Origin: a virus
DNA length: 37,614 bases
Strand: one strand, 5' to 3'
IMG/VR virus record: IMGVR_UViG_3300045988_158900
How positions within the stretch are numbered: position 1 is the first letter of the stretch; each line of letters begins with the position of its first letter. The translations under genes were made by a program, and so were the position numbers. This document shows, in pieces, positions 21,634-34,950 of the stretch. Below the pieces are notes generated by a model. It saw only the letters and a list, made by a program, of their open reading frames with translations. It was not told where the DNA came from and ran no database searches.

Positions 21634-21637
21634 AATA

Positions 21638-21934: not shown

Positions 21935-22008
21935 GACAAGGGCGAAAGCCCTTGTTTTTTTTATATGGCATTATGCCCATAATTCGGTTGGAAATTTTGG
22001 TGATTTTG

Positions 22009-22112
22009 CCTATTGACATCCTGCCCCATTTATGTTATACTCGGTCGCGCGCCCACGGCCCTGGCGCGCGAAATTTACCATTATACCATGTCCCAGCAAT
22101 TTTGTCAATAGG
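22009..22112. repeat. Palindromic promoter element copy 1 (PE1): face-to-face consensus promoters flanking a GC hairpin
   Basis: CCTATTGACA...TGTTATACT on plus, a GC hairpin (GTCGCGCGCC cacggccct GGCGCGCGA), and the reverse complement of TTGACA-N17-TGGTATAAT on minus, ending ..TTGTCAATAGG. Confidence 0.65.
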
Positions 22113-22140
22113 CAAATCAAACAAAAATCATACATTCTGA

Positions 22141-22164
22141 ATCCCGAAATTTGTGCATTTTGAC
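22141..22164 (+). promoter_or_regulatory. Conserved upstream box ATCCCGAAATTTGTGCATTTTGAC preceding a class-2 promoter. Example of about 9 copies.
   Basis: Variants of the same motif recur 20-40 bp after each palindromic element, at about 21247, 23192, 24978, 26877, 29294, 30933, 32235, 33892 and 34989. Confidence 0.5.
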
Positions 22165-22224
22165 TATTGACATTCACGCGCCCCTGTGCTATACTGTATA
22201 CATAAAACAGAGGAAGTCATGAGT

Positions 22225-22497
22225 ATGACGCGTGAGTACAAGGTTCGGTTCATCGACAGCGAAGCCCAGCATAGCGAGACTGCCACTATCCAGTGGGATG
22301 TTGATACCAGCATCTGCGACCTTATCGAGGAACAGCTCTATATCCTGTGGGAGTTGCGCCCTTTGGAGCGTGAGTGGCGGAGACAGTTCTGTACCAATGG
22401 TTGGACGCGGTTTATATATGGCCTATATGAGCAGTTTTCTGTGTCCTATCCCTGGGATAATTCCAATATCATCACCGTTGAAAAAATCCAGGCTTGA
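22225..22497 (+). CDS. Hypothetical protein, 90 aa
   Basis: Promoter TTGACA-N17-TGCTATACT and RBS GAGGAAG lie 8 nt before ATG at 22225. Terminator CCAGGCTTGACCTGG followed by a T-run overlaps the stop. Confidence 0.55.
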   Translation: MTREYKVRFIDSEAQHSETATIQWDVDTSICDLIEEQLYILWELRPLEREWRRQFCTNGWTRFIYGLYEQFSVSYPWDNSNIITVEKIQA

Positions 22498-22577
22498 CCT
22501 GGATTTTTTTATTTTATGCTTGACAACAACCAATAGGTGTGCTATAATTGTATTATCAAATGAGGGAGGTATTCAAG

Positions 22578-22799
22578 ATGGAATACAGTGTGGTAGTCAA
22601 TAATGTTGAGGTCGTGCGCGTGAGCGGTGATGAAGCCGCGTGGAACAAGTTTGAAATGGCGTGTGAGTTGGTGCGGCTGATGCTGGCTGATGGTGGCTTT
22701 GGTGAAGCGTGGGCTGAACTCCGCGAGATGAACAGCGAACCTATCGCCCGCTTTGATGAAAAGGGTATGAGCGAGTGCGGCGCAGTCCGCGGAATGTGA
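22578..22799 (+). CDS. Hypothetical protein, 73 aa
   Basis: Promoter CTTGACA-N17-TGCTATAAT and RBS GAGGGAGG before ATG at 22578. Confidence 0.55.
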   Translation: MEYSVVVNNVEVVRVSGDEAAWNKFEMACELVRLMLADGGFGEAWAELREMNSEPIARFDEKGMSECGAVRGM

Positions 22800-22809
22800 G
22801 GTGCGACAA

Positions 22810-23007
22810 ATGAACGCTAAGGGATACACATTTTGCGGCGGAGCTGATGAACGGGATGTTCTCCGCTATGGCGAGTACCTGACCGATGAACAGTATACCA
22901 CATGGGACAAGCACTATTACCGCCTGCGCGCTATCCGCTACAACGGTAAACTGTACTGGCACAAGATGGTGGACGGCGAACTGGTTGAATTTAAGGTTTT
23001 GATTTAA
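22810..23007 (+). CDS. Hypothetical protein, 65 aa
   Basis: RBS GAGGTG lies 7 nt before ATG at 22810. Terminator GAGCCAAAATTTGGCTC followed by T7. Confidence 0.5.
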   Translation: MNAKGYTFCGGADERDVLRYGEYLTDEQYTTWDKHYYRLRAIRYNGKLYWHKMVDGELVEFKVLI

Positions 23008-23050
23008 TAATAAATGAGCCAAAATTTGGCTCATTTTTTTGTGCATTTTG

Positions 23051-23153
23051 CCTATTGACAAAATAGCATTTTTATGGTATAATTTTGGCCGCGCGTCTAC
23101 GACCCTGACGCGCGGAAATTCCATTATACCACAGCCCAGCCAATTTGTCAAGC
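23051..23153. repeat. Palindromic promoter element copy 2 (PE2)
   Basis: Same architecture: CCTATTGACA-N17-TGGTATAAT, hairpin GGCCGCGCG tctacgaccctga CGCGCGG, then reversed TATAAT/TTGACA. Confidence 0.65.
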
Positions 23154-23269
23154 ATTTTGTGTTCGGTATTTTCAACAATTTTTTATCCCGAAATTTGTGC
23201 AATTTGACGGTTGACAATGCTCAGTAGGTATGCTATACTTATACCATCAATTAAAGGAGGTCATTCACA

Positions 23270-23446
23270 ATGGCTACTATCGCAATCCTCGCAATCCTCG
23301 CCCTCGCTGGCTTTGCTGGCGTTCAGTGTGTCGGCGGGTATATGGTCTATCGTCAGACGCACGACTGGCACTTCCTCATTGGCTCTATCCTATATGGCGT
23401 TGCCTGTATCGGTCTGGTGCGCTTCGTGTTCAATATGGGGTGGTAA
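23270..23446 (+). CDS. 58-aa small membrane protein (MATIAILAILALAGFAGV...)
   Basis: Promoter GTTGACA-N17-TGCTATACT and RBS AAAGGAGG lie 8 nt before ATG. Two hydrophobic segments. Below the track length cutoff. Confidence 0.55.
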   Translation: MATIAILAILALAGFAGVQCVGGYMVYRQTHDWHFLIGSILYGVACIGLVRFVFNMGW

Positions 23447-23447
23447 T

Positions 23448-23771
23448 ATGGAAAACTACACTATGTCGAACCATCTGACAGAGGAGCGGGCTAACCGACT
23501 CGCCCTCTTACAGGAATACCTCGGATATTCCGACCGCGTGATGATTGAGGTCATTGACCAACGCCAAACCGCCCGTCTGCGTTTGCTCTCGACTGGCATC
23601 ATCTTGGTGCTGGACTTATATGAGAATTTCATCATCACCGCATACCCCGCAACTTTTGAACGGGCTGTCGCTATATACAAGAGTGCGGGCAAAAACCGTC
23701 TGCCCCAGCAGTTGGTCAAACGCATTCGCAAGAATGAGGAACGCCACCCTGAATTTTATGTGGTGAAGTAG
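23448..23771 (+). CDS. Hypothetical protein, 107 aa. The only island gene ending in TAG.
   Basis: ATG lies 1 nt after the upstream TAA. The 5-prime part of track ORF 23211..23771 overlaps the membrane peptide and lacks an RBS, so the start was moved to 23448. Confidence 0.5.
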   Translation: MENYTMSNHLTEERANRLALLQEYLGYSDRVMIEVIDQRQTARLRLLSTGIILVLDLYENFIITAYPATFERAVAIYKSAGKNRLPQQLVKRIRKNEERHPEFYVVK

Positions 23772-23842
23772 AAAATTGGGGCTTGACAAACAAGCCCCTA
23801 TCTGCTATAATAAATAATACCAAGAGAAAGGAGAATACCAAA

Positions 23843-24073
23843 ATGGAATTTATTGAACCCCCTATCTATGTCAAGTTGAGCGATGAAGAGCGCAATTCAC
23901 TCCATGAAGCCTATGTTATTCTAAATGACCTCGCGACTGCCGCCGAAGAAGATGACAGCGAATACATTGGCAACCCGCTAACTGGTGATGGCTATGGGCG
24001 GTTTGATGTGAGCCAAGCCGCTGAAATCTGCCGAGTGTTCGCGCCTGCTGAAAAACTGGAAATTAGTAATTGA
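23843..24073 (+). CDS. Small acidic protein family, copy 1 of 3 tandem paralogs (76 aa)
   Basis: RBS GAAAGGAGAAT. The segment EPPIYVKLSDEERNSLHEAYVILNDL aligns with copies 2 and 3. Confidence 0.6.
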   Translation: MEFIEPPIYVKLSDEERNSLHEAYVILNDLATAAEEDDSEYIGNPLTGDGYGRFDVSQAAEICRVFAPAEKLEISN

Positions 24074-24087
24074 GGGAGGAAAACAAA

Positions 24088-24315
24088 ATGGAAGTTATTA
24101 AACCCCCCATCTATGTCAAAATGACAGAGAAGGAGCGGAAAACCCTGCGCGATGCCTATGATATTCTGAATGAACTGTATGACGTCATCGCCGATAATGA
24201 CTGCGAGTATGTGAGCGATACTTGCGGGAATAACTATGACAGAGTGGACGTTGCGCTTACGGCTAATGTGCTTCAAATGCTTGCCCCCACTGAAAAAGTG
24301 GAAATCGGCAAATAA
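24088..24315 (+). CDS. Small acidic protein family, copy 2 of 3 (75 aa)
   Basis: RBS GAGGGAGG. The segment KPPIYVKMTEKERKTLRDAYDILNEL aligns with copy 1. Confidence 0.6.
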   Translation: MEVIKPPIYVKMTEKERKTLRDAYDILNELYDVIADNDCEYVSDTCGNNYDRVDVALTANVLQMLAPTEKVEIGK

Positions 24316-24330
24316 AAGGAGGTAAAACAA

Positions 24331-24561
24331 ATGAACATCATTACCTCAAACGTTCAGGTTCAACTCACCCAAGAGGAGAAGGACAAACTCCAAGACGCCC
24401 GCGAGGTTATTTCTCACCTGTTTGATTTGATGTATGACTACGAACAAGAATACGCTATTTCCAACATTGGCGAAAAGTATTCTATGGGCCAAGTCCGTGA
24501 TACCTCAAACCTGCTGGCCGCGCTTATCGGGTCTGATAAAATGCGGTTAGAAAATAAATAA
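24331..24561 (+). CDS. Small acidic protein family, copy 3 of 3 (76 aa)
   Basis: RBS AAAGGAGG. Same length and conserved ..LT.EE...L.DA..V...L..... pattern. Terminator at 24567-24591 is directly followed by the next -35 hexamer. Confidence 0.5.
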   Translation: MNIITSNVQVQLTQEEKDKLQDAREVISHLFDLMYDYEQEYAISNIGEKYSMGQVRDTSNLLAALIGSDKMRLENK

Positions 24562-24649
24562 AAAAAATGTGGGAGAAATCCCACATTTTTTATTGACAAC
24601 ACAACCAGTAGGTGTAGTATAATGTAGACAATGAAACAAGGAGGTAACA

Positions 24650-24856
24650 ATGACCACATTTCAAATTCGAGAGGAACTGGCGAACCGCTACAATTTAGAA
24701 ATCCGCAATGTCTGCTGTTATCACTGTGAATACTGGGGCTACAACCGCGGCAAGGTGCTGAATAGCGTGGGCGAGAGTAAATGTATGAAGCGCAAGAACG
24801 AGCGCACTTGGTGTCGTCAATTCTGCCGGGGTTTCGTTCCGAAATCAGGAAAATAA
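24650..24856 (+). CDS. Cys-rich zinc-binding small protein, 68 aa
   Basis: Track ORF with RBS AAGGAGG. Cysteine pattern CC-H-C ... C..C...C. Sequence MTTFQIREELANRYNLEIRNVCCYHCEYW... Confidence 0.55.
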   Translation: MTTFQIREELANRYNLEIRNVCCYHCEYWGYNRGKVLNSVGESKCMKRKNERTWCRQFCRGFVPKSGK

Positions 24857-24907
24857 ATCATTTGGGCTGGATAAACAAAAATCCAGCCCAATTTTTGTAT
24901 AATTTTC

Positions 24908-24966
24908 CACTTGACATTTTCGGCCGCGCGCTCACGAATGTGGCGCCCGGCATTTTTGTCAATAGG
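24908..24966. repeat. Palindromic promoter element copy 3 (truncated: arms plus hairpin, without -10 boxes)
   Basis: CCACTTGACA, hairpin, then ATTTTTGTCAATAGG. On plus the hairpin is followed by T5, so it is terminator-like. Confidence 0.5.
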
Positions 24967-25068
24967 TATACTTCACAAATTTTTCACCGCAATTTTGTGC
25001 ATTTTGACGATTGACTTCTATCCCGTAATACGGTATAATGGCTATACTGAAACAAGGAGGTAAGAACA

Positions 25069-25287
25069 ATGGAGTTGAAGAAAGCGTATCAGATGGTTTT
25101 CAGCGACCTGCATAATTGTCCTATGTTCCAAGGGCGGTATGACGCCATCAATGGCAATCCCTACTTTATGTTCGGCATTGAGACGGTTATGGAGGTAATC
25201 GCCAATCGCGCCTATGATGATGATTTTACCGAGAATTTCTCCAATGAATTTACTGACAATATGTTAAGGAGTAGAGAAAGTGTTTAA
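25069..25287 (+). CDS. Hypothetical protein, 72 aa
   Basis: Box plus promoter GATTGACT-N17-CGGTATAAT and RBS AAGGAGG. Track ORF. Confidence 0.55.
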   Translation: MELKKAYQMVFSDLHNCPMFQGRYDAINGNPYFMFGIETVMEVIANRAYDDDFTENFSNEFTDNMLRSRESV

Positions 25288-25465
25288 TATTGTATTGGCA
25301 CTAATCGTCGTAGGCGGGTGCGCGTGGGCGATTATCCACTTTATCCTCTGGCGAGACGAGAAATACTTATCCACCGAGGAGCAAATCCGCGAAATGATGG
25401 ACGAAACGTCCATTCCCACTGACACGCTGTGGAGTATGTATAACAAACTGACAGAGGGGCGTTAA
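25280..25465 (+). CDS. Small membrane protein, 61 aa (GTG start)
   Basis: RBS AGGAGTAGAGAAA-GTG. N-terminal TM helix MFNIVLALIVVGGCAWAIIHFILW. Confidence 0.45.
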   Translation: MFNIVLALIVVGGCAWAIIHFILWRDEKYLSTEEQIREMMDETSIPTDTLWSMYNKLTEGR

Positions 25466-25601
25466 TGCCCCTCTTGTTGGGTTTAGTCCTGGCTAACTAC
25501 ACGGAACAAAAAACTAATCCTGTGAGAATATAACTACAACAAAAATTTTTCTTGACATTTTCAAATAAATGTGGTAATATTATTATACTGAAAAAGGAGT
25601 G

Positions 25602-26078
25602 ATGACTGTGAACGCAATTATTCTATTCATTGTCTGTACCGCTATCAATGTGGTGCTGTCCACCATTAAGTCTATTTTGACTGTCAAAGGCAATAAGTGG
25701 ATTGCCGCCAGTATCAATGCGCTGACTTATGGCTTCTATTCCTATGTCATTATCCTGACCAACATTGACGGCGTTTCTACGTTGGCAAAAATGGGCATCA
25801 CCGCCGCCTGTAATTTCGTTGGTGTGCTGGCGGTCAAGTGGGTCGAGGAGCTGGCGCGCAAAGAAAAGTTGTGGAAAATCGAAATGACTGTTCCTACTAA
25901 GTATCGAGCCGCTGTGGATTTTGACCTGCGAGACATTCCCCACTCATACATTGAGATTAGCAACAAACATACACTATTCAATTTCTATTGTGCCACGCAA
26001 GCCGAGAGCAAAAAGGTCAAGGACATTGTAGCACAGTATGGCGCAAAATATTTCGTAGCAGAAAGCAAAAATTTGTAA
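25602..26078 (+). CDS. Membrane protein with three TM helices and a C-terminal soluble domain, about 158 aa. The start may instead be GTG at 25608.
   Basis: Promoter CTTGACA-N17-TGGTAATAT and RBS AAAAAGGAG. Hydrophobic N-terminal half. Function unknown (superinfection-exclusion-like topology). Confidence 0.5.
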   Translation: MTVNAIILFIVCTAINVVLSTIKSILTVKGNKWIAASINALTYGFYSYVIILTNIDGVSTLAKMGITAACNFVGVLAVKWVEELARKEKLWKIEMTVPTKYRAAVDFDLRDIPHSYIEISNKHTLFNFYCATQAESKKVKDIVAQYGAKYFVAESKNL

Positions 26079-26144
26079 AATAGGGGTTGACAAATCAGCC
26101 CCTATGTGTTAGAATGGTATCATCAAATAAGGGAGGATAACAAA

Positions 26145-26294
26145 ATGGAAATGATTAAAGTTTTCAATGACCACACTGGCGAAATCCTTGAAAAGACGTT
26201 CGTAGACCCCGCGGACGCGGACGACTTCGAGTTCATTCTCGACTTCCTTGAAACGAGATACGAACGCTACCACAACGGCGAACAAATCTACTAA
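26145..26294 (+). CDS. Small acidic protein, 49 aa
   Basis: Hairpin-embedded promoter ATAGGGGTTGACAAATCAGCCCCTAT..TGTTAGAAT and RBS AAGGGAGG before ATG at 26145. Confidence 0.5.
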   Translation: MEMIKVFNDHTGEILEKTFVDPADADDFEFILDFLETRYERYHNGEQIY

Positions 26295-26307
26295 GGAGGG
26301 CGCGACA

Positions 26308-26505
26308 ATGGAAATCAAAGATGTGTACTACAACGTTGAGTGGTGGGGCATAACCACTTGGGGCGAACGCTTCACTAATAGCGAATGGTTCAAGGATGAA
26401 AATGAAACTCTGTCGTTCATCGCGAATGACCTGGCGAATGACCCGCTTGTTCGCGGAGCGACCTTCACCACACACAAAACCATCGTATTTAAGAGAGGAG
26501 AATAA
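26308..26505 (+). CDS. Hypothetical Trp-rich protein, 65 aa
   Basis: RBS TAAGGAGGG before ATG at 26308. Sequence MEIKDVYYNVEWWGITTWGERF... Confidence 0.5.
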   Translation: MEIKDVYYNVEWWGITTWGERFTNSEWFKDENETLSFIANDLANDPLVRGATFTTHKTIVFKRGE

Positions 26506-26507
26506 AA

Positions 26508-26705
26508 ATGTTTACTGCTCTGTTTTTGGTACTGGTATGCCTTGGCATCGACTTCCTGTTCTCTGCTGGCTTCTCCCCGCCATTGGCATCGTGTCCATCG
26601 GCTCTTTCGTTATCGCGTTCTCGTGGAAACTGGTGCTGGTGTTTTGGCTCATTGTCGCAATCCTGCGTTCCATCTTCCGCGTCACTGTCAAGAGTTAATA
26701 AATGA
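26508..26705 (+). CDS. Small membrane protein with ambiguous frame. The ATG/RBS frame (26508..26705) and a -1 frame (26540..26698) both look coding.
   Basis: RBS AGAGAGGAG before ATG at 26508 gives a TM start MFTALFLVLVCLGIDFLF followed by a low-complexity tail. The -1 frame gives two clean TM helices (MPWHRLPVLCWLLPAIGIVSIGSFVIAFSWKLVLVFWLIVAIL). Possible frameshift or indel. Confidence 0.35.
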   Translation: MFTALFLVLVCLGIDFLFSAGFSPPLASCPSALSLSRSRGNWCWCFGSLSQSCVPSSASLSRVNK

Positions 26706-26745
26706 AAAATCTCCCAAATTTGGGAGATTTTTTTTGTTTATTTTG

Positions 26746-26848
26746 CCTATTGACAAAAACCCCTATTTGTGGTATACTCGGCCGAGCGCCCACGGCCCTG
26801 GCGCTCGAAATTTCCATTATACACCCTGCCAGCAATTTTGTCAATAGG
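26746..26848. repeat. Palindromic promoter element copy 4 (PE4)
   Basis: CCTATTGACA-N17-TGGTATACT, hairpin CGAGCGCC cacggccct GGCGCTCG, then reversed TATAAT..TTGTCAATAGG. Confidence 0.65.
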
Positions 26849-26985
26849 TAAATTGAACAAATTTACCCAAGCGCGCATCCCGAAAGTTTGTGCGAAATGA
26901 CCAAGAGCAGAATTGAAAAAAACTGTTGACAAATCGCGTTTTATCCTGTATAATAGCATTACAATCAAGAAAGGAAGTTGATACT

Positions 26986-27432
26986 ATGACTATCTATCTG
27001 GACATGGACGGGACTATCGCCGACCTGTATGGCGACCCTAACTGGCTGGCAAAGCTGGAAGCCGCGGACACGAGCGTATATGCGGACGCCCGCCCGCTTG
27101 TCCACTTCTCCACCCTCGCCCGCTATCTGAACCGCTTACAGGCGCGGGGCTACAATATCGGCATCATCAGCTGGCTGTCCAAGAGCGGAACGGATAAGTT
27201 CAATGCCGAAGTTGCCGAAGTCAAGCGCGACTGGCTGGCAAAGCATCTCCCCAGCGTGGAATGGGATGAAATTCATATTATCCCCTATGGCGTTCCTAAG
27301 TCCAACTGTGCGACCTGCCCCAACGCGATTTTGTTCGATGATGAACAGCGCAACCTCAACGAGTGGACGGCAAACACCCACAATATGGCATACAACGCCG
27401 ACCTTCTAATGGAAATTCTGCGCAACCTGTAA
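26986..27432 (+). CDS. 5-prime(3-prime)-deoxyribonucleotidase, HAD superfamily (NT5C-like), 148 aa
   Basis: N-terminal HAD motif I IYLDMDGTIADLYG and later ILFDDE. Box plus promoter TGTTGACA-N17-TGTATAAT. RBS GAAAGGAAGTTGATACT-ATG is shared with the two cassette A genes. Confidence 0.65.
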   Translation: MTIYLDMDGTIADLYGDPNWLAKLEAADTSVYADARPLVHFSTLARYLNRLQARGYNIGIISWLSKSGTDKFNAEVAEVKRDWLAKHLPSVEWDEIHIIPYGVPKSNCATCPNAILFDDEQRNLNEWTANTHNMAYNADLLMEILRNL

Positions 27433-27544
27433 AAAAAATAGCAAATAGGGGTTGACAATCTCACTCCTATTTGCTATAATATGTAATGTAATTAAGGTAT
27501 GGGACACGATGGTAAGCCCAACCAAGAGAAAAGGAGAATGAACA

Positions 27545-28201
27545 ATGAAAAATATCTACTGCACGCTGGATACTGAAACGGTAGGCGGCGCGGCTCGCCC
27601 CACGGGAATGTATAATGTGGGCGCGATTATCCACGACCGCAAGGGCGAAATTCTCGCCACCACTTCCCTGCTGGTGATGGAGCATTATGACGAAATCGCC
27701 CTTGATGGCTACGCCAAGAAGAATTTTCCGGTGTATGCCGAACGGCTCAAAACTGGCGAAATCTCCGCTATCGCCACGGAGCGCGAAGCCTATGAGGTAG
27801 TCAAAAACCTGTGCGACCATTACGGCGTTCGCTATGTGATGGCATACAATTCCGGTTTTGACTTCTGCAAGACCTGTTTCCGCGACCTGCTGGATAATTT
27901 CGAGTTCATCGACTTGTATCTTATGGCACTGGAAACTATCACCCACAAAAAGTCCTATGCGGAATATTGTCGAGAACACGGCAAGCGTTCCAAGAATGGC
28001 AAGACCTGTGCAACCTCTGTCGAAGCGGTGTATGGTTATCTCCACGATAATCCTGACTTTTCCGAAGAACACACCGCCCTGTCTGACGCTATGCAGGAAA
28101 TGGAAATTTTCCTCGCCTGTCAGAAGATGCACAAGCGATACACCAAGAACGTCCACGCATGGGACGCACCTTTTGAGGTAAAATGTTTTCCCAAGTTTTG
28201 A
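27545..28201 (+). CDS. DEDDh-family 3-prime-5-prime exonuclease (DnaQ/RNase T-like), 218 aa
   Basis: Exo I CTLDTETVG, Exo II YVMAYNSGFDFCK, Exo III HTALSDAMQEMEI (H-x4-D). Preceded by a 10-codon uORF MVSPTKRKGE (27508-27540) inside a conserved leader. Confidence 0.7.
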   Translation: MKNIYCTLDTETVGGAARPTGMYNVGAIIHDRKGEILATTSLLVMEHYDEIALDGYAKKNFPVYAERLKTGEISAIATEREAYEVVKNLCDHYGVRYVMAYNSGFDFCKTCFRDLLDNFEFIDLYLMALETITHKKSYAEYCREHGKRSKNGKTCATSVEAVYGYLHDNPDFSEEHTALSDAMQEMEIFLACQKMHKRYTKNVHAWDAPFEVKCFPKF

Positions 28202-28268
28202 GATTGGGGCTTGACAGCCCCTTTCTCATGTGGTATAATGACTATACTAAGACAAGGAGGTAAGCGAA

Positions 28269-28484: not shown

Positions 28485-28558
28485 AAAAAGTTTGGAATGG
28501 GGGTTGACAACGCCCCCATTCCATGCTATAATAACATTACAAATTCAAGGTAGGGGAA

Positions 28559-29089
28559 ATGATGGTAAGCCCCACCAACAGAAAAGGAGAAAAAACTATA
28601 AAAGCTCGCTATGCTAACCTGACTAACTTCAATCGCGTGGTCAATACCTACAAATGGATGGTTTCCAAGTTCGGAAGTAAGGAGTTCTCCTCTGAGGACT
28701 TTAAACAGGCAAAGCGCAAGTATCGGCGATACACCTACAATTCCCTTGCGTTTCTGCGGGACGAGGGTATCATCAAGGTAGTCCGCACCGAACAGACCAC
28801 CAAGGAAATTAACCTGTCTCCGTGGGAAGCGGACATTTGGATGATTGACAAGGATGGCAGCGCCCTGATGACCGAGTATGACTGGGTACGTTTGCCGGAC
28901 GTGGCGCAGAACGCTCTGCGTGCTCTGAATGGACAGAATTTCCGCACGGAGCGCAAGGACACCAAGACTGTGGAAGTGGAAAAGTCCATTTACACGGTCA
29001 ATCCTGATGGTATGCTGGCATGCGCAAGAGGTATGGGCGTCTGTTGGCTGAAAGGGCTGACGCGCTGGCGGGCGAAATCGCAAACCTGA
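28559..29089 (+). CDS. Hypothetical protein, 176 aa. Its N-terminus MMVSPTNRKGE is homologous to the uORF of the exonuclease leader.
   Basis: Promoter GGAATGGGGGTTGACAACGCCCCCATTCC..TGCTATAAT. The leader is about 85% identical to the 27480-27545 leader, but here it is fused in-frame to the ORF. Confidence 0.5.
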   Translation: MMVSPTNRKGEKTIKARYANLTNFNRVVNTYKWMVSKFGSKEFSSEDFKQAKRKYRRYTYNSLAFLRDEGIIKVVRTEQTTKEINLSPWEADIWMIDKDGSALMTEYDWVRLPDVAQNALRALNGQNFRTERKDTKTVEVEKSIYTVNPDGMLACARGMGVCWLKGLTRWRAKSQT

Positions 29090-29172
29090 ACGAAAAGCGG
29101 GACGCATTTCTCGCTTGTCAGTTCTAACAAAAATGAGGGGAGTTTTCCCCTCATTTTTTTTGTATAATTTTC

Positions 29173-29274
29173 CCTATTGACAAATGCGCCTGGACATGGT
29201 ATAATGGCCGGCCGATTTCGCGCGTCTCGGCCGGAATTCACCATTATACACCCCGCCAGCAATTTTGTCAATAG
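29173..29274. repeat. Palindromic promoter element copy 5 (PE5)
   Basis: CCTATTGACA-N17-TGGTATAAT, hairpin CCGGCCGA tttcgcgcgtc TCGGCCGG, reversed promoter ending TTGTCAATAG. Confidence 0.65.
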
Positions 29275-29365
29275 TTTTTTTACACAAATTTTTTTATTTA
29301 TTTTTCCCAAAACTTGTATAGTTTGCCTGTTGTAATCCATGCCCACCTGTGCTATACTACATAAT

Positions 29366-29925
29366 GTCAAGAGGGAGTGAGACCCCGTGGGCTGGGCTAA
29401 TGGTATGTAATGTCCCAAGTGTAAGTGAGAGCGCGCCGTACTGAAAAAAAAGACCAAAATTCCCTCTTGACAAACTCCATCAAAGGTGCTATAATGGGTA
29501 GTGTCAAGAGGGGAACGGCACGGCAGATGCGTCTAATGTGTCGCCTGTGTAGACAGGTTTCAGAAATTTGGAAAAATTTCAAAAAACCTCTTGACAAACC
29601 CCAACACCTGTGTTATAATTGATAATGTCAAGAGGGGAACAGCCCCACCCAAGAAATCCGCGGGTCGCGAACCGTGAGAGAGTAAAGGAAGTAAGCCCTA
29701 TACCAGCGCAGTAATCCCAAACGATGAACGAAAAGTGAGTGGATTGGTCAGTTCGTCCATGCGCATGGAAACGTTGAACCAACAAGCAACACCTTATTCG
29801 TCAGGCGAGGTTGTAAGTCGTTGTGAATACTTGTGGGACGTTCCCCTGTTGGCACTATTAAAAAAAATCAAGAATTTTGAAAAAAAGTCTTGACAATCCC
29901 AGCGTAAGCTGTTATAATAGATAAT
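29366..29925 (+). ncRNA. Tandem array of three promoter-driven small structured RNAs (about 105, 85 and 265 nt) with a conserved 5-prime AAUGUCAAGAGGG(G)AAC leader
   Basis: Promoters at 29318-29359, 29467-29495 and 29591-29619, each TTGACA-N17-TATAAT. Each transcript 5-prime GUCAAGAGGG can pair with the CCCUCUUGAC that forms the next -35 region. No ORF longer than 10 codons. Tiny GTG-started ORF (M)GWANGM at 29387-29410. Confidence 0.5.
29890..29918 (+). promoter_or_regulatory. Consensus promoter of cassette 1 (TTGACA-N17-TATAAT)
   Basis: Exact hexamers. The transcript begins AAUGUCAGGAGGGCAAAGCCCUC (5-prime hairpin) before the RBS. Confidence 0.6.
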
Positions 29926-29974
29926 GTCAGGAGGGCAAAGCCCTCAAAACCAAATGGAGAAAGGAATTGATACT

Positions 29975-30355
29975 ATGGCTAACACTAACACCACCACCCG
30001 CAAGCCCACCAAACGCGACAATTTCACCGCCCTGCTCAAGCTGTCCGAGGTCAAGGCTGACCCCAAGCTGGTGGAGTTCATCACCCACGAAATCGACCTG
30101 CTCGACCGCAAGAACACCGTGGACAAGAAGCCCACCAAGACCCAGCAGGAGAATGAGGCCATCAAGACCACTGTCCTGTCCGCTATGGAGAGCAACCGGC
30201 TGTATTCCATCAGCGAGATGCTCAAAGAGTTCCCCGTCTGCAAGGACATGAGCAATCAGAAGCTGTCCTCTCTGGTGCGGCAGATGGTGCTGGATAAGCA
30301 GGTGGAGCGCGTGGAGGACAAGCGCAAGGCGTTCTTCCGCAAGGTGAGCGCGTAA
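29975..30355 (+). CDS. Cassette protein A1, 126 aa (paralog of A2)
   Basis: RBS GAAAGGAATTGATACT-ATG. Conserved with A2: TKRD.FTALLK, ELLDRKNTVDKKPT.TQ, SNQK.SSLVRQMVLD.Q..R.EDKRKA.F. Confidence 0.6.
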   Translation: MANTNTTTRKPTKRDNFTALLKLSEVKADPKLVEFITHEIDLLDRKNTVDKKPTKTQQENEAIKTTVLSAMESNRLYSISEMLKEFPVCKDMSNQKLSSLVRQMVLDKQVERVEDKRKAFFRKVSA

Positions 30356-30406
30356 ACCTCAAAGGGTGGGGAGCAATCCCCACCCTAACCCTGAAAGGAG
30401 TACCGC

Positions 30407-30763
30407 ATGACTGACCGAGTTGCCGACCTCATGCGAAAGCTGGATTGTACCGAAGCCGAAGCCAAGGACATTATTGTTCAAGATGCTATCATCGACAAGG
30501 GCGGCAATCCATTTCCGCTGACCGAGGAACAGGAAAAGGCAAGCAAGAAAGCGCGGGGAGTAGGACGCCAGCCGACCGCATACAAGTTCGCGCCAAAAGA
30601 AAGAAAGGCTAATCTCACAAAGCAGGGCATTATCACCCTACTGACCGAGACACTGACCACATACGGCGCGACTGACCTGAACGTGAGCAACGTGGAGCGC
30701 GAATTTTTATTCACGCTTGATGGAACAAAATACAAGGTTGTGCTGTCGTGTCCGCGCAAGTGA
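30407..30763 (+). CDS. Cassette protein B1, 118 aa (paralog of B2)
   Basis: RBS GAAAGGAG. Conserved with B2: PTAYKF..(K/R)ERKAN.TK..II..L. Terminators flank the gene. Confidence 0.6.
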   Translation: MTDRVADLMRKLDCTEAEAKDIIVQDAIIDKGGNPFPLTEEQEKASKKARGVGRQPTAYKFAPKERKANLTKQGIITLLTETLTTYGATDLNVSNVEREFLFTLDGTKYKVVLSCPRK

Positions 30764-30801
30764 GGGAGAGAAATTCTCCCTCATTTTTTTTGTGTATTTT
30801 G

Positions 30802-30903
30802 ACTATTGACAAATTTGGGCGCGTGTGGTATAATTCGGTCGCGCGTCCACGTATGTGGCGCTCGAAATTTCTATTATACACCCCATTGGCAATTTTGTCA
30901 AGC
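30802..30903. repeat. Palindromic promoter element copy 6 (PE6)
   Basis: GACTATTGACA-N17-TGGTATAAT, GC hairpin with loop CCACGTATGTG, reversed promoter ending TTGTCAAGCG. Confidence 0.6.
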
Positions 30904-31013
30904 GTTTTTTTACACAAATTTCAAAGATTGAAAATCCCGTTTTTTGTAGGTATTGCCTATTGTAATTCTCCTGTAATGTGCTATAATGATGATACTGAAA
31001 GGAGCGATGAACG

Positions 31014-31697
31014 ATGGAGTTTCCGAGAGTTCAGGATTTTATCCTGACCATTCAGCAGGCGGTGTCTAAAAAACCGCGTTTGGTCAACCGCGCTGATGAC
31101 CTGTGCCGAGTTATCCACAACACATACCCTGATGTCAAGATAATCACCAGCAACGGCGCAAGCAAGGAATGTCTGGTGTTCCCTGAGTTGGGCTATGTCC
31201 TCAAATGGTCTATGGAGACGCGGGACGCAGAGCGCGAAGTGGCTGTGTATCAGAAAGCCGTAGACGCAAACCTCGCTGATTTTTTCCCCGCCACTATGCT
31301 GGCTGGCTACATTGTTCCCCCGCGCAAGTGTGATAATCCTGTTGCATTTACCGCACAACAGATTATTAACACCAGTGCCCATAAAATCCATTGGAGTAAG
31401 GGCGGGTTGAAAACTCGTCTTTCGCGTATCGCACAGACTGTCCCCGATTGTCGTATTTCTCAGATTGAACGGCAGTTCCGCAAAGCTGATGTTAATGGCT
31501 ATGGGCGCGACCTCGATGGGCTATGGGCGAAAGTTGCCGTTTCTATCTACGGTAAGCGCAAGGTTATCGCCCTCTGTGAGTTCGTTAAAAAGTATCACAT
31601 CAATGACCTCCACGGCTCAAATATCGGCTACATTGGCATCTTTCCTGTTATCCTCGATTTCTCCGGCTATGGCGTCTGTGATGGTTTAGAGTTTTGA
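31014..31697 (+). CDS. Hypothetical protein, 227 aa
   Basis: Box plus promoter TATTGTAA-N17-TGCTATAAT and RBS GAAAGGAG. Track ORF. ATG at 31005 in another frame gives only 20 aa. Confidence 0.55.
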   Translation: MEFPRVQDFILTIQQAVSKKPRLVNRADDLCRVIHNTYPDVKIITSNGASKECLVFPELGYVLKWSMETRDAEREVAVYQKAVDANLADFFPATMLAGYIVPPRKCDNPVAFTAQQIINTSAHKIHWSKGGLKTRLSRIAQTVPDCRISQIERQFRKADVNGYGRDLDGLWAKVAVSIYGKRKVIALCEFVKKYHINDLHGSNIGYIGIFPVILDFSGYGVCDGLEF

Positions 31698-31741
31698 AAA
31701 AAACTCTTGACAAACAGCCCCGCCTGTGCTATACTAACATC

Positions 31742-32095
31742 GTGAGGTGAGAAAAATGAAATGGCGATTGTATCGTCCCCCTTAGTAATCAATCTATGAT
31801 TATTGATTAGATATATTTATAGATTGATTAAGACCCCAGCCAAGATGGAGTTTAATAGAGTGTTTGTCCCACTCAATAATTTCTTCTCAACCGCCATCTT
31901 GAACCCCTCGTTAGAAATTGGGACTGGGTACGAAGTTCTAACCACATTCACCGTGTGCCGAGAAAGACCCTCCATAGTGGGCTTTGCGCCCCGGTTTTGG
32001 GTCTACTGTGTAGAAGTGGGCTGGCTGTCCGGACGGCTGGCGAACATCAACAGGGGAACCAGCGTAGTAGCCAACTACGCTGGTTTATTTTTGTT
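31742..32095 (+). ncRNA. About 350-nt promoter-to-terminator non-coding transcript with a 9-codon leader ORF MKWRLYRPP (31756-31785, TAG stop)
   Basis: Promoter TTGACA(31707)-N17-TGCTATACT(31730). Terminator CAGCGTAGTAGCCAACTACGCTGG followed by a T-run at 32060-32100. Only a 9-codon ORF has an RBS (GAGGTGAGAAAA-ATG). The track ORF 31803..32132 lacks an RBS and reads through the terminator. Confidence 0.45.
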
Positions 32096-32102
32096 TATTT
32101 TG

Positions 32103-32203
32103 CCTATTGACAAATGCGCTCGAATGTGTTAAAATGGGTCGGGCGCTCACGGCTGTGGCGCCCGAAATTTCCATTATACCACGTGGCACAAATTTTGTCA
32201 AGT
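32103..32203. repeat. Palindromic promoter element copy 7 (PE7)
   Basis: CCTATTGACA-N17-TGTTAAAAT, hairpin TCGGGCGC tcacggctgtg GCGCCCGA, reversed TATAAT..TTGTCAAGTG. Confidence 0.65.
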
Positions 32204-32294
32204 GTTTTTTTGCACAAATTTTGAATGTTGAAAATCCCATTTTTTGTGAGTATTGACTATTGTAATTTGCCCAAGGGTGTGGTAATATATAATT

Positions 32295-32440
32295 GTTCCA
32301 AGGGAGAGGGTAAGACCTCCGGCGGGGCGTGTACCTTAAAAAAAAATTCCACAAATCCGAAAAAAAGTCTTGACAAGGCTTCGGATATGTGTTAGAATAT
32401 AGATGTTCCAAGAGGGAAACAACAATATGGTGGGCGACAC
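32295..32440 (+). ncRNA. Two tandem small RNAs with an UUGUUCCAAG(G)GAG leader variant and a 5-codon uORF MVGDT preceding cassette 2
   Basis: Promoters at about 32253-32289 and 32370-32398 (TTGACA-N17-TAGAAT). Same organisation as 29366-29925. Confidence 0.4.
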
Positions 32441-32466
32441 CTAAAAACGCAGAAAGGGTTGATACT

Positions 32467-32919
32467 ATGACTGCTATCACTTCCACCGCTAACCGCCGTA
32501 TGACCAAGCGGGACTACTTCACCGCCCTCAAAACCTTTGCCGAGGTGGGCGAGTTCAAGTTCCCCATTTCCCAGCGTATCGGCACTTCCGAGGACTTCGA
32601 GACTGTCTATGTGGACATTTCTCCCGCAGAGATAGCGGAGTTCGCCAAGCATGAGCTGGAACTGCTCGACCGCAAGAACACCGTGGACAAGAAGCCGACC
32701 GCCACGCAGGTGGCAAACGAGGGTATCAAGGCTGACATCAAAGCGTTTCTGGACGCCCACAAGGGCGAGAAGTACACCGTGTCTGCTCTGATGAAGTCTG
32801 TTCCCACTATCGCCGATGCGTCCAATCAGAAGGTTTCTTCTCTGGTGCGTCAGATGGTGCTGGACGGTCAGGCAGACCGTATCGAGGATAAGCGCAAGGC
32901 GTATTTCACCGCCAAGTAA
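32467..32919 (+). CDS. Cassette protein A2, 150 aa (paralog of A1)
   Basis: RBS AAAGGGTTGATACT-ATG, identical spacing to A1 and the NT5C gene. Terminator GGGGGGGAGATATTCTCCCCCC follows. Confidence 0.6.
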   Translation: MTAITSTANRRMTKRDYFTALKTFAEVGEFKFPISQRIGTSEDFETVYVDISPAEIAEFAKHELELLDRKNTVDKKPTATQVANEGIKADIKAFLDAHKGEKYTVSALMKSVPTIADASNQKVSSLVRQMVLDGQADRIEDKRKAYFTAK

Positions 32920-32977
32920 GGTATGGGGGGGAGATATTCTCCCCCCTATCCCCTAAAATCTGAAAAGGCGGTGTTTT

Positions 32978-33376
32978 ATGGCTGAAATCTCCAAAACCGA
33001 ATGGCTGAAAAACGCTATGGCGAAAATGGGCTGGACTGCCGATGAAGCGGAAGCCGTGTGGAACTCTGACCGAGAAATCGACAAGGGCAAGGCACAGGAT
33101 TTTGACCTGTCGAAAGAACAGCTCAAAATTGCCCAAAAATTCGCCAAGACTGGCACTCGCAAGACCCCCACCGCATACAAATTCACTACGAGGGAACGCA
33201 AGGCAAATCCCACGAAAGCGTCCATTATCGCTGAACTCGCAACATTTTTGACCGAAAACAGCGAAAATGCCTGCGAAAATGTGGAAATTACCAACAAAGA
33301 GCGTCAAATTGCGTTCAAAATCGGTGAAAATTCCTATGAACTGACTCTTGTGCAGAAGCGCAAGCCGAAAAGTTGA
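32978..33376 (+). CDS. Cassette protein B2, 132 aa (paralog of B1)
   Basis: Track ORF. Conserved PTAYKFTTRERKANPTKASIIAEL with B1. Confidence 0.55.
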   Translation: MAEISKTEWLKNAMAKMGWTADEAEAVWNSDREIDKGKAQDFDLSKEQLKIAQKFAKTGTRKTPTAYKFTTRERKANPTKASIIAELATFLTENSENACENVEITNKERQIAFKIGENSYELTLVQKRKPKS

Positions 33377-33426
33377 GAAAATGGGGGAGAAATCCCCCAT
33401 TTTCCCCAGAAAACGAGGAAAAAAGT

Positions 33427-33771
33427 GTGAAAAACAAGGAATTTTTGTATGTAGGGCACTATTATGATGAAAATGGCGTATACATTCTGAAAATAGGCAC
33501 TACTAATGACTTAAAGCGCAGACAGCAGGAACACACGAGAAACTACCGCAAGACCGCCGTTCACCGTTTACCGCACAATTCTGAATTTATTTACGATTTT
33601 TCGCTACCGCTTTCCAAGTATAATACTTTGCGATACGAGGACAAAAACCGTGAGAAATGGCAGAAAATGGGATACGGTGTGTTTGTGAGAAATGACAGAT
33701 TTGCATGTCCTGTGAAGCCAAAATCTGTTGAAATTACCATTCGTCGAACTTACCAAATCGCTCTCGATTGA
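33427..33771 (+). CDS. GIY-YIG domain protein (T5orf172-like), 114 aa, GTG start
   Basis: RBS GAGGAA 6 nt before GTG. Motif LYVGHYYDENGVYILKIGTTNDLKRRQQEH matches GIY..(10)..YIG.T.NL.RR..EH. Confidence 0.55.
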   Translation: MKNKEFLYVGHYYDENGVYILKIGTTNDLKRRQQEHTRNYRKTAVHRLPHNSEFIYDFSLPLSKYNTLRYEDKNREKWQKMGYGVFVRNDRFACPVKPKSVEITIRRTYQIALD

Positions 33772-33794
33772 GGGCGATTTTTTTATTCAATTTG

Positions 33795-33870
33795 ACTATT
33801 GACAACGCCCTCTGACTGTGGTATAATGGGTCGGGCGCTCACGGATGTGGCGCCCGGCATTTTTGTCAAG
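33795..33870. repeat. Palindromic promoter element copy 8 (right arm truncated)
   Basis: GACTATTGACA-N17-TGGTATAAT, hairpin CGGGCGC tcacggatgtg GCGCCCG, then CATTTTTGTCAAG. Confidence 0.55.
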
Positions 33871-33994
33871 ATACATTTTCAACAATTTTTCCGGCGAAAA
33901 TTTGTATAAATTGACTATTGCATTTTGTCCCGAAATGCGCTATACTATAAACAATCTGAGGGAGCTGGAACCCACCAACAGCACGGAGGCATTT

Positions 33995-34606
33995 ATGAAT
34001 AAGAGCCAGTTTTTTGACCACGAAATCGAGTTCATTCAGTCCGAGGATTTGCGCTCATTCGTGCGCTACTACTTCGACTGTATCGTTCCCGACTATTTCT
34101 GGACTATCGGCGCAAGTTCTTCCGGCAAGTTCCATCCGGCTATGAGCCAAGGCGAGGGCGGTTTGGTGCGCCACACTAAGGCGGTCGCGTGGTTTTGCGA
34201 GGAATTGCTCCGCATGAGCCAGTGGGCGTATCTCACTGACGAGCGCAAGGACTACGCAAGAGTTGCCTGTCTGCTCCACGATACCGCCAAGTATGGCTTA
34301 CACGAGTTCGACAAGGAGTTGTACCCCAAGCACGGGGCTATGGCGGCTGACCAAGTTCGCCGTTCGTGGCTGGTATTTTTCGAGAATGACTGCCCCTATG
34401 AGTTGACGCAAGCCATCAAGTCCCACATGGGTCAGTGGACTACCGACAAGGCGGACAGACCTTTCACTCCTATCGACAGACTGGTACACATGGCTGACTA
34501 TGTGGCAAGCCGTTCGTTCATCGACATTCCGGCAATTAACGCTGACTATAACGACAAGGCGGAACTGGACGAAATTTCGCCTGAACTGCCGTGGGAGGAG
34601 GAATAA
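33995..34606 (+). CDS. HD-domain metal-dependent phosphohydrolase, 203 aa
   Basis: H..(about 35)..HD motif (FHPAMSQGEGGLVRHTKAV ... CLLHDTAKY). Box plus promoter ATTGCAT-N17-CGCTATACT. The leader contains CCCACCAACAGCACGGAGG, related to the exonuclease leader. Confidence 0.65.
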   Translation: MNKSQFFDHEIEFIQSEDLRSFVRYYFDCIVPDYFWTIGASSSGKFHPAMSQGEGGLVRHTKAVAWFCEELLRMSQWAYLTDERKDYARVACLLHDTAKYGLHEFDKELYPKHGAMAADQVRRSWLVFFENDCPYELTQAIKSHMGQWTTDKADRPFTPIDRLVHMADYVASRSFIDIPAINADYNDKAELDEISPELPWEEE

Positions 34607-34608
34607 TC

Positions 34609-34743
34609 GTGACCCCTAAATTTTACTTCAACGCTGACGAGAATGTATGCGCGAGTGAGCACTGGGTCATCCAGTATCTCCACATACAAAATCCCGACAT
34701 AGACGAGGATGAAATCGAGGGCGAACTCCACTCCCGCCGGTAA
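34609..34743 (+). CDS. Small acidic protein, 44 aa, GTG start overlapping the HD gene stop
   Basis: RBS GGGAGGAGGAATAATC-GTG. Sequence MTPKFYFNADENVCASEHWVIQYLHIQNPDIDEDEIEGELHSRR. Below the track cutoff. Confidence 0.4.
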   Translation: MTPKFYFNADENVCASEHWVIQYLHIQNPDIDEDEIEGELHSRR

Positions 34744-34837
34744 TATTTCGGTTGGTATGAGTGTCAAATGTCCGATGACATTTTCAACAACTTTTGTTAA
34801 AGGTGGAGAAATCCACCTTTAATTTTTGTTCATTTTG

Positions 34838-34950
34838 CCTATTGACAACGCGAGCCCAGTGTGGTATAATAAAAGGGGAGGTGCAACGGGCCGAGCGCGG
34901 GCGCTGCGGTCCGAATTTCCATTCTCCCACCCCATATGGAAAATTTTCCG
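34838..34950. repeat. Palindromic promoter element copy 9 (degenerate right arm). Followed by three CATATG-containing palindromes at 34933-35010.
   Basis: CCTATTGACA-N17-TGGTATAAT, GC hairpin GGCCGAGCGCGGGCGCTGCGGTCC, then GAATTTCCATTCTCCCACC. Confidence 0.45.

Follow-up and report, generated by a model that had tools for sequence, protein, structure and literature searches.

A polar promoter-hairpin-promoter module at gene-cassette boundaries in a TAG-recoded tailed phage

In T4-like phages, composite terminator/promoter repeats known as promoter-early stem-loops (PeSLs) have been documented to mediate the shuffling of gene cassettes (PMC2839356, PMC4122927). In the Frpo and ssi promoters of F and ColIb-P9, one DNA strand folds, and its stem rebuilds a TTGACA and a TATAAT together with unpaired regions (PMC9849209, PMC11541004). 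Here we analyse a repeated element in a 37,614-nt viral sequence, IMG/VR record IMGVR_UViG_3300045988_158900 (the whole of it is hereafter called the window, and coordinates refer to it unless a contig is named). The element consists of two consensus promoters that face each other across a GC-rich hairpin. We favour, at a probability of roughly 0.45, the reading that it is the core of a lineage-specific regulatory cassette of ~230 bp, in which duplex convergent promoters are combined with a PeSL-like recombination joint.

The modules resemble PeSLs in being repeated intergenic units that carry a stem-loop terminator and a host-type early promoter, in lying in a hyperplastic region whose small genes have no known homologues, and in containing the indel and replacement junctions between related genomes (contigs L066 and L099). 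They differ from PeSLs in belonging to another phage lineage and host phylum (phAss-1 and EF1-like relatives), in showing no sequence similarity, and in having an extra inverted promoter, a covarying GC hairpin of fixed polarity, and a third promoter at a fixed distance. With Frpo and ssi the modules share a strand that can fold into a promoter-like stem; by geometry, the folded minus strand would be the template of the adjacent plus-strand genes, and several copies occur in one island of small, co-oriented, putatively early genes. However, the setting here is a double-stranded DNA (dsDNA) tailed phage and not transferred single-stranded DNA, and no conjugation or rolling-circle genes were recognized among the island proteins scanned. 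Moreover, both arms are duplex consensus promoters with 17-bp spacers, which predicts activity on duplex DNA, a GC clamp sits at the tip, and there is no sequence homology (no Rfam match, and no blastn match in 72,556 plasmids). The Frpo region is also several hundred nucleotides long, compared with ~100 nt for the element; related hairpins recognized by RNA polymerase are the minus-strand origin of M13 and ssoA of rolling-circle plasmids.

Face-to-face promoter switches are known from coliphage 186 (pR/pL), phage P2 (Pe/Pc), and Enterococcus pCF10 (PQ/PX). Judged by sequence, the element resembles them in having converging sigma-70-type promoters with overlapping predicted initial transcripts, and mutual occlusion and collision would be expected here as in the switches. 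Whereas the switches occur once per element, have genes behind each promoter, and carry overlapping repressor operators, the element is present in 6–9 copies per island, has no gene behind its leftward promoter and no operator repeats, and holds a covarying GC hairpin between the promoters. The host-takeover module of SPO1/SP82 and the pre-early region of T5 are dense in strong sigma-A early promoters, ribosome-binding sites, terminators, and small genes, and the island studied here encodes a 5′ deoxyribonucleotidase, as does the T5 pre-early region, and an HD hydrolase homologous to SPO1 gp32.6. We know of no palindromic promoter pair with a GC hairpin described in the SPO1/SP82 or T5 pre-early regions. 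Integron attC sites are likewise imperfect palindromes of fixed polarity, with conserved ends and a variable but structure-conserved centre, at the boundaries of exchangeable cassettes. Unlike attC sites, the element lacks R and L core sites (RYYYAAC / GTTRRRY), its ends are the promoter boxes TTGACA/TGTCAA, and its cassettes have their own promoters; no integrase was found among the island proteins scanned. The module is thus set apart from PeSLs by phage lineage, from Frpo by the single-stranded context, and from the switches by genes and operators. It is best classed, by analogy, as a unit that may work like a convergent-promoter interference device, appears to evolve like a PeSL, and has one strand that looks like an Frpo-type promoter.

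The anatomy of the module was derived from 41 family members in 20 stem classes. The order over ~230 bp is terminator, rightward promoter P1, GC hairpin, leftward promoter PL, ATCCCGAA box, rightward promoter P2, and gene. As the original prediction held, the element contains two consensus promoters face to face: both arms are by sequence complete sigma-70/sigma-A-type promoters (TTGACA, 17 bp, TGnTATAAT), and the pattern TTGACA-N17-TAWAMT-N25-55-ATTATA-N17-TGTCAA gives nine strand-hits at six loci of the window compared with none in 100 shuffles. The motif CCTATTGACA, with at most one mismatch, occurs 22 times in the window (2.5 expected). The −10 hexamers of P1 and PL are 37–38 bp apart and enclose a stem of 8–10 bp of G-C pairs with a loop of 9–11 nt. 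The arms were originally described as palindromic, which holds for the −35 and −10 boxes only, the 17-nt spacers being non-complementary. The linkers between −10 hexamer and stem are asymmetric, with 3–4 nt on the P1 (left) side and 7–8 nt on the PL (right) side. Because the PL linker is 7–8 nt long, the PL transcript is predicted to start at the base of the hairpin, and because the P1 linker is only 3–4 nt long, the P1 transcript is predicted to start 3–5 nt inside the stem. The hairpin, proposed earlier as the 5′ end of both transcripts, would therefore form in full only on the antisense RNA.

The polarity of the module is fixed. In ~45 copies the element has the same orientation relative to terminators and genes, and it always lies behind a terminator T-run, which agrees with its noted placement after gene terminators. 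PL is the better kept promoter: its −10 is TATAAT in 37 of the 41 members, three further members are register shifts, and one has TATACT, whereas the −10 of P1 is TATAAT in 20, TAAAAT in 14, and TATACT in seven. PL is perfect while P1 is not in 20 elements, and the reverse is genuine in one (L057:209). The retrieval criterion itself was strand-symmetric. The WTCCCR box (ATCCCGAAATTTGTGCA in the window) stands 32–33 nt past the PL −35 in 35 of 37 elements, and the −35 of P2 stands 58–59 nt past it in 20 of 28, which bears out the reported conserved box and second promoter; P2 follows every window copy. A Bacteroidetes-type promoter does not fit the motif of the box. PL has a conserved upstream region of its own at fixed spacing (TTCGGGA, ~14 nt, AAATTTGTGCA, 7 nt, CTCTTGACA), which is mostly unable to pair with the P1 flank, and P1, PL, and P2 share an upstream layout of TTTGTGCA, 5–7 nt, and CYTNTTGACA. 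In appearance, the box resembles the ascending half of a typical upstream terminator. Given this likeness and the common upstream layout, the whole module can be read as a single terminator-promoter unit copied in direct and inverted orientation. Derivatives with P1 only and with PL only occur, so each promoter can persist alone with the hairpin. No open reading frame (ORF) with a ribosome-binding site lies downstream of PL, and the element spacers hold no operator-like repeats such as those of the TTACG-type pairs seen at other loci. Of the upstream terminators, only about half appear to be bidirectional.

Selection acts on the hairpin to maintain pairing. Both partners have changed in five of the eight core stem pairs of alignment A2 (CG to GC in 11–13 of 30 sequences). 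Pairing is kept in 89% of cells, with a covariation score of 0.178, compared with 0.02–0.07 when the partners are slid by 1–3 columns. The earlier view that stems vary yet stay complementary and that the structure is selected is thus upheld. A loop motif YCACG..GTG, also reported earlier, is present in most window copies; it is absent from the copy at 29173, is not family-wide, and is partly an extension of the stem (CAC/GTG). A GC hairpin of −9 kcal/mol or stronger follows the eight element P1 promoters, whereas the 22 other strong plus-strand promoters all lack one. Nearly all stem pairs are Watson-Crick, leaving little G-T wobble asymmetry, and folding energies of the tip are equal on both strands. 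An intrinsic terminator is rejected for the hairpin of complete copies, which have no U-tract after the stem. Mimicry of a CRISPR (clustered regularly interspaced short palindromic repeats) repeat is rejected because the stem varies from copy to copy and the loop is too long; Chi sites and T5-type GCGC nick sites were dropped as well, since hairpins of the family do not generally contain them, and no sigma-dependent pause element is present. Rfam gave no match over the window at gathering thresholds, and at E ≤ 1 over 29300–32480 it gave only a chance-level thermometer hit. A T-run (GCATTTTTG or ATTTTCTTTTTG) follows the hairpin in truncated window copies and in the third phAss-1 copy, and this variant would act as a terminator directly after P1. 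The T-run variants show that the hairpin can serve roles at the RNA level, which does not settle the choice between the readings weighed below.

Comparison of related contigs shows that the modules mark the points at which gene cassettes are swapped between related phages. Specifically, window positions 22109–23035, with three small genes, are absent from L066 and L099, and at the junction each contig has one chimeric element, in which the left arm of the first complete window element is joined to the right arm of the second. The crossover lies in the loop in L066, where the stem is broken, and in the right −10 in L099, while L027 retains both elements and the cassette. In addition, the right half of the window remnant at 24903 equals that of the copy at 33795, which identifies the remnant as a recombinant. 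The chimeric elements at indels and this shared right half indicate that modules are junctions of cassette gain and loss. Orthologous copies may have wholly different stems (window 26746 compared with L051:2190).

The window is part of the genome of an uncultured, tailed dsDNA gut phage whose late and structural genes are TAG-recoded. Positions 1–17000 have ~30% GC, with genes on the minus strand, and reading through TAG there yields 14 ORFs of at least 200 aa, compared with five in the standard code. With TAG modelled as Gln, one recoded ORF matches the portal family phrog_2739 over its full length (residues 8–485 of 487, spanning nine TAGs) and another, with 11 in-frame TAG codons, matches terminase large-subunit families. 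The window also encodes capsid genes, which together with portal and terminase identify a tailed phage. No suppressor tRNA was found in the window. One end of a 194,444-bp ENA contig matches the window with 99.97% identity; protein matches and weak similarity at the DNA level suggest kinship with Enterococcus phages EF1/VRE9, phage phAss-1, and SPO1-like phages. Phage phAss-1, which has been published, is TAG-recoded, comes from the gut, and is predicted to infect a clostridial host (PMC10607447). Our best explanation places the cassette, as a recurrent punctuation mark, in the host-takeover-type early island of a phage of ~195 kb with a probable Firmicutes host.

In the reading that we favour, host sigma-A RNA polymerase would bind P1 or PL, never both, because their −10 hexamers are 37–38 bp apart, their predicted starts ~24 bp apart, and their footprints overlap. 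PL would win over P1 since it is almost always a perfect consensus; it would occlude P1 and collide with polymerase reading through the upstream terminator. The PL transcript would start exactly at the GC hairpin, giving it a 5′ stem-loop, and would end within ~100 nt where the upstream terminator is bidirectional. P2, divergent from PL at a fixed distance, would express the downstream gene. The net effect would be that each gene cassette is insulated while polymerase is strongly recruited locally, and the repeated conserved modules would serve as homologous-recombination joints at which cassettes are gained and lost, as at T4-like PeSLs. Duplex promoters are favoured because TTGACA, exactly 17 bp, and TATAAT, the duplex optimum, are retained in both arms, because the non-complementary spacers are those expected of two independent duplex promoters, because conserved sequence of its own stands upstream of PL at fixed spacing, and because PL-only and P1-only derivatives exist. 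That P2 follows the window copies and keeps a fixed distance in the family suggests that P1 is not the working mRNA promoter. Face-to-face promoter pairs at the spacing of the element are common in Firmicutes mobile elements among the scan matches listed.

Several points weigh against duplex convergent promoters. Promoter use, start sites, and interference are predictions from the sequence. PL drives no gene, and with only about half of the terminators bidirectional, some antisense transcription would enter the preceding gene. Under the duplex model, the tie between the hairpin and a convergent pair lacks a compelling reason, and the predicted P1 start inside the stem means that the hairpin cannot serve both RNAs equally. 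The model also leaves unexplained why P1 keeps a perfect −35 and a 17-bp spacer, which folding of the element back on itself would explain together with the coupling to the hairpin. Finally, in whole-element folds the minus strand is more stable than the plus strand by a mean of 0.7 kcal/mol (27 compared with 16 elements).

The main alternative, which we consider unlikely though well worth keeping in view, is a single-strand or cruciform hairpin promoter. Here the minus strand, when single-stranded, would fold back on itself, so that the −35 and −10 boxes of one arm pair with those of the other to give a pseudo-duplex promoter whose register is clamped by the GC hairpin; with the PL arm as non-template strand, host polymerase would transcribe through the loop into the downstream plus-sense gene. 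After conversion to duplex, P1 and P2 would take over and PL would be an unavoidable by-product. The minus strand does fold as this predicts, into a −35 stem of 8–17 bp, a spacer bubble, a −10 stem of 6–11 bp, a 3×8 internal loop, and the GC tip, with z-scores of −2.8 to −6.8, and its slightly greater stability points the same way. The excess of elements in which only the would-be non-template arm is perfect (20 compared with one) would also be expected, the unpaired linker of 7–8 nt has the length of the discriminator plus start site of an open complex, and the GC clamp is found only with the palindrome. Besides, the small early genes on one strand resemble leading-region anti-defence islands with several Frpo-like promoters (PMC11541004, PMC9849209). 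However, no spacers are complementary, and the P1 −10 variants are uncompensated. Between the arms, no covariation beyond the hexamers is informative; the −35 and −10 columns are invariant and were partly fixed by the retrieval pattern. The spacers of both arms have the duplex-optimal 17 bp, the PL upstream region mostly does not pair with the P1 flank, and PL-only half copies keep perfect hexamers. The context speaks against a single-stranded template as well, since portal and terminase mark a tailed dsDNA phage with no known single-stranded stage of this region, and the window has no relaxase or oriT and no plasmid similarity. Frpo is reported to be off after conversion to duplex (PMC9849209), whereas here both duplex promoters are consensus. 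It is similarly doubtful, if anything slightly more so, that this tailed dsDNA phage has a promoter array working on single-stranded or fold-back DNA as a counterpart of Frpo-driven leading-region islands. If it did, the first-expressed, standard-code genes could be transcribed from a single-stranded or end-resected entering genome; one template form would be the 3′ tail left by AddAB/RecBCD-type resection, with the GC hairpin as folding clamp.

It is improbable, in our judgement, that the product of the element is the RNA itself, that is, that PL makes an abundant short RNA of ~35–110 nt with a 5′ GC hairpin, ending at a bidirectional terminator or by collision, and that P1 only terminates or limits it. 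Such an RNA could be a decoy, an antisense RNA, an R-loop former, or a primer. The predicted PL start exactly at a stem that covaries, the high conservation of PL and its upstream region (the most conserved part of the element), the minus-strand scores of some upstream terminators (26732–26705 and 24891–24862), and the existence of PL-only copies are all compatible with it. The sequence of hairpin and loop is not conserved, however, which leaves no evident common target or protein site, and the body of the RNA would be merely the complement of P1. Furthermore, upstream terminators are not consistently bidirectional, truncated copies without PL are conserved in relatives, and Rfam gives no match.

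We likewise hold it to be rather improbable that the palindrome is a by-product, generated by inverted duplication or template switching of a terminator-promoter unit, without a direct regulatory role, and spread and homogenized by recombination as a PeSL-like "mobile regulatory cassette". The chimeric elements at cassette indel junctions and the recombinant remnants are what such a process would leave, the different stems of orthologous copies suggest conversion between copies, and the half-terminator likeness of the box and the common upstream layout of P1, PL, and P2 point to copies of one unit. Yet polarity, linker asymmetry, the 37–38 bp spacing, and a perfect PL are kept across lineages of 28–50% GC, including phAss-1 with its TACAAT, and the compensatory stem changes indicate purifying selection on structure. 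A transposable palindrome of the miniature inverted-repeat transposable element (MITE) or Correia type with terminal inverted repeats CCTATTGACAA, offered as an alternative in the original prediction, has inverted-repeat ends, a size of ~100 bp, and multiple copies in its favour but is very improbable and was rejected, as orientation to terminators and genes is fixed in ~45 copies, the only position is the functional one at early-island cassette boundaries, the "terminal repeats" are −35 boxes with flanks like those of ~25 non-palindromic island promoters, no flanking target duplication is visible by eye in the window copies (it was not scored systematically), and no family members occur in the low-GC part of the window, in plasmids, or, apart from two stray fragments, in the genome-contig matches listed.

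The copies in the window were placed by alignment A1 and covariance model R1. Nine copies and a half copy had been claimed; six are complete, three are truncated or degenerate (24903, 33791, and 34838), and the half copy at 21139 is borne out. The complete copies, all on the plus strand, score 87–101 bits with R1, compared with 34–45 bits on the minus strand. Element 1 (22005–22114; 90.5 bits; hairpin −13.2 kcal/mol) has P1 with its −35 at 22013–22018 and its −10 (TATACT) at 22036–22041, a GC stem-loop at ~22045–22071, and PL on the minus strand with its −10 at 22080–22085 and its −35 at 22103–22108. Its ATCCCGAAATTTGTGCA box lies at 22141–22157, and P2 on the plus strand has its −35 at 22167–22172 and its −10 at 22190–22195. 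Element 2 (23047–23157; 98.9 bits) has P1 at 23055–23083 (TATAAT), the stem-loop at ~23089–23115, the minus-strand PL −10 at 23123–23128 and −35 at 23146–23151, the box at 23185–23201, and the plus-strand P2 at 23211–23239. Element 3 (26742–26850) has the highest score, 101.4 bits, with P1 at 26750–26778 (TATACT), the stem-loop at ~26783–26807, and the minus-strand PL −10 at 26816–26821 and −35 at 26839–26844, followed by a variant box, ATCCCGAAAGTTTGTGCG, at 26877–26894 and by P2 at 26926–26954 (plus strand).

Element 4 (29169–29277; 87.2 bits) combines P1 at 29177–29205 and a stem-loop at ~29208–29234 (CCGGCCGA/TCGGCCGG) with a minus-strand PL (−10 at 29243–29248, −35 at 29266–29271). Its plus-strand P2 at 29330–29358 (TTGTAA, 17 nt, TATACT with TG), reached after a 58-nt gap, enters a non-coding stretch. 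In element 5 (30798–30907; 87.5 bits), P1 lies at 30806–30834, the stem-loop at ~30839–30865, the minus-strand PL −10 and −35 at 30873–30878 and 30896–30901, and the plus-strand P2 at 30960–30987. In element 6 (32099–32207; 100.6 bits), the corresponding positions are 32107–32135 (TAAAAT), ~32139–32165, 32173–32178, 32196–32201, and 32260–32288 (TTGTAA, 17 nt, TAATAT). The T-run of the terminator at 26704–26733 leads directly into the upstream region of P1; this terminator also scores on the minus strand (26732–26705) and would therefore stop PL transcripts. Equivalent upstream terminators lie at 21933–21958, 23012–23036, 24862–24891, 29129–29158, 30758–30786, 32056–32086, 33755–33780, and 34796–34823, and the one at 24891–24862 also scores on the minus strand.

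The incomplete copies are of several kinds. The truncated element at 33791–33888 (plus strand; 43.5 bits) has an intact P1 (33799–33827) and GC hairpin and keeps the right −35 (33864–33869), but its right −10 and spacer are deleted, and the hairpin now runs into the terminator-like GCATTTTTG; L118 has the identical junction. The plus-strand remnant at 24903–24968 (17.6 bits), conserved in L099, has −35 boxes at 24911–24916 and 24957–24962 around a mismatched GC hairpin and has lost both −10 hexamers. The degenerate last copy, at the right island edge (34838–34950, plus strand), has P1 at 34842–34870, a GC hairpin at ~34887–34913, and a decayed right arm; the covariance model gives 19.3 bits for 34885–34923. 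The half copy at 21139–21210 (minus strand) consists of a leftward promoter only, with its −35 at 21199–21204, an 18-nt spacer, and a −10 ending at 21175; its hairpin is decayed and its left arm is replaced by a ATTGTTAAAA..TTAAC palindrome. An analogous PL-only copy is found at L014:207–313. The covariance-model scan found no elements elsewhere in the window outside the island.

The search of other genomes proposed originally places the element in a defined phage lineage. A generic pattern scan of IMG/VR yielded more than 120 loci, about 30 of which are the same polar element, in contigs of 60–200 kb to which covariance model R1 adds further copies; the remaining loci are unrelated face-to-face promoter pairs with operator-like repeats. 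Phage phAss-1 (L243, OQ749652) has module copies at 2961–3066, 5165–5269, and 6825–6930 (R1), with TACAAT-type −10 hexamers and with box and P2 included. The third of these consists of P1 and the GC hairpin followed by the terminator-like ATTTTCTTTTTG. The phAss-1 paper mentions neither promoters nor repeats (PMC10607447), and no description of such phage elements was found in the literature. In the cultured Enterococcus phage EF1, no convincing copy was found in 40 kb around the syntenic region, so this phage offers no obvious laboratory model, and blastn with the element gave no match in 50,697 GenBank phage records or in the plasmid set. A generic scan of bacterial genome contigs gave at least 120 loci, almost all of them unrelated switch-type pairs with operator repeats in Clostridia; among the matches listed, the family is represented by L126 and possibly L178, stray fragments only, and there is no sign of it in conjugative elements. 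Another, widespread family of face-to-face pairs (for example L002, L015, L022, L134, L140, and L159), common in Clostridia genomes and phages, has TTACG..CGTAA operator-like repeats in its spacers and probably marks genetic switch regions. In the low-GC relative L082, two modules stand back to back at 6470–6750, the P2 of the first being the P1 of the second, and the intergenic DNA is strewn with TTGTGCA/TGCACAA motifs and remnants of leftward −35 boxes ("promoter debris").

All window copies lie in an island at 19052–35050 (plus strand) with 45–51% GC, the standard code (TAG is used as a stop at 23769), and all genes on the plus strand. We read this island as an early region. Its GC content is 15–20 points above that of the rest of the genome; the low-GC relatives L042, L044, L057, L061, and L082 have the same modules in DNA of 28–32% GC, so the rise is specific to one sublineage. 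There are ~33 small genes in the island, and most of them have a consensus promoter, an AAGGAGG ribosome-binding site, and a terminator to themselves. The recognizable products, an NT5C-like 5′ deoxyribonucleotidase, a DnaQ-like exonuclease, the HD hydrolase, and a T5orf172 domain protein, are of a host-takeover or auxiliary type. A promoter scan found 24 perfect 12-of-12 sigma-70 consensus promoters within the 16-kb island; the seven on the minus strand are all PL arms of elements. This arrangement agrees with the notion that the early genes of recoded phages stay in the standard code (background in PMC10607447). A 17.6-kb contig begins exactly at the left island edge, window 19052, which is compatible with a break caused by strain variation, and the coordinates of IMG/VR contigs, checked for a terminal position of the island, are scattered.

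Other features of the island and its borders are recorded here in their own right. A 20-bp palindrome, ATTGTTAAAAATTTAACAAT, has ~9 sites (0.1 expected) at 19475–20165 and 21118–21137, in a GC-rich non-coding stretch of 1.2 kb at the left edge; one of them takes the place of the left arm in the half element at 21139. These sites resemble operators or iterons for some protein. Three ORF-free, promoter-driven stretches ended by terminators (29340–29920, 31740–32090, and 32270–32460) are probably structured RNAs; Rfam gave no match for the three, and a 9-codon leader (MKWRLYRPP) precedes the RNA at 31740. In their promoters the −35 flank CCTCTTGACA recurs inverted as TGTCAAGAGG at about +8 to +17. 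At compact junctions (23778–23798, ~26085, ~27445, 28206–28221, and ~28497), the loop or stem of the terminator hairpin holds the −35 of the next promoter (GGGGC TTGACA GCCCC). Adjacent gene pairs are paralogous (29975–30355 with 32467–32919, and 30407–30763 with 32978–33376), without a convincing Pfam or PHROG family match, and seem to represent one two-gene cassette in duplicate; an element and promoter-led non-coding RNAs precede each of the two. Immediately beyond the right island edge, ACTCCCATCATTTTCTTTC forms a perfect tandem repeat (19 bp, 6.1 copies; 35678–35792), and alignments with the near-identical contigs L121 and L122 break in it, with ~100 bases there compared with 38 in the window; copy number therefore appears to differ. 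Farther right is a 90-bp repeat in two copies (36449–36632).

The element is real, non-random, conserved, and under structural selection, and the original prediction describes most of it correctly. Its regulatory architecture is strongly selected in a clade of stop-codon-recoded gut phages to which phAss-1 belongs. The module shows how the early region is laid out, each exchangeable cassette being bounded by a polar promoter-hairpin-promoter unit. If duplex convergent promoters are the right reading, the module would be a natural, reusable device for transcriptional insulation and interference built from promoter and hairpin parts alone. If the folded single strand were the promoter, the Frpo principle would extend from conjugation to phage infection, implying an unrecognized single-stranded stage. 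Under either reading, the modules explain the turnover of cassettes in the early island and predict start sites and structures precisely.

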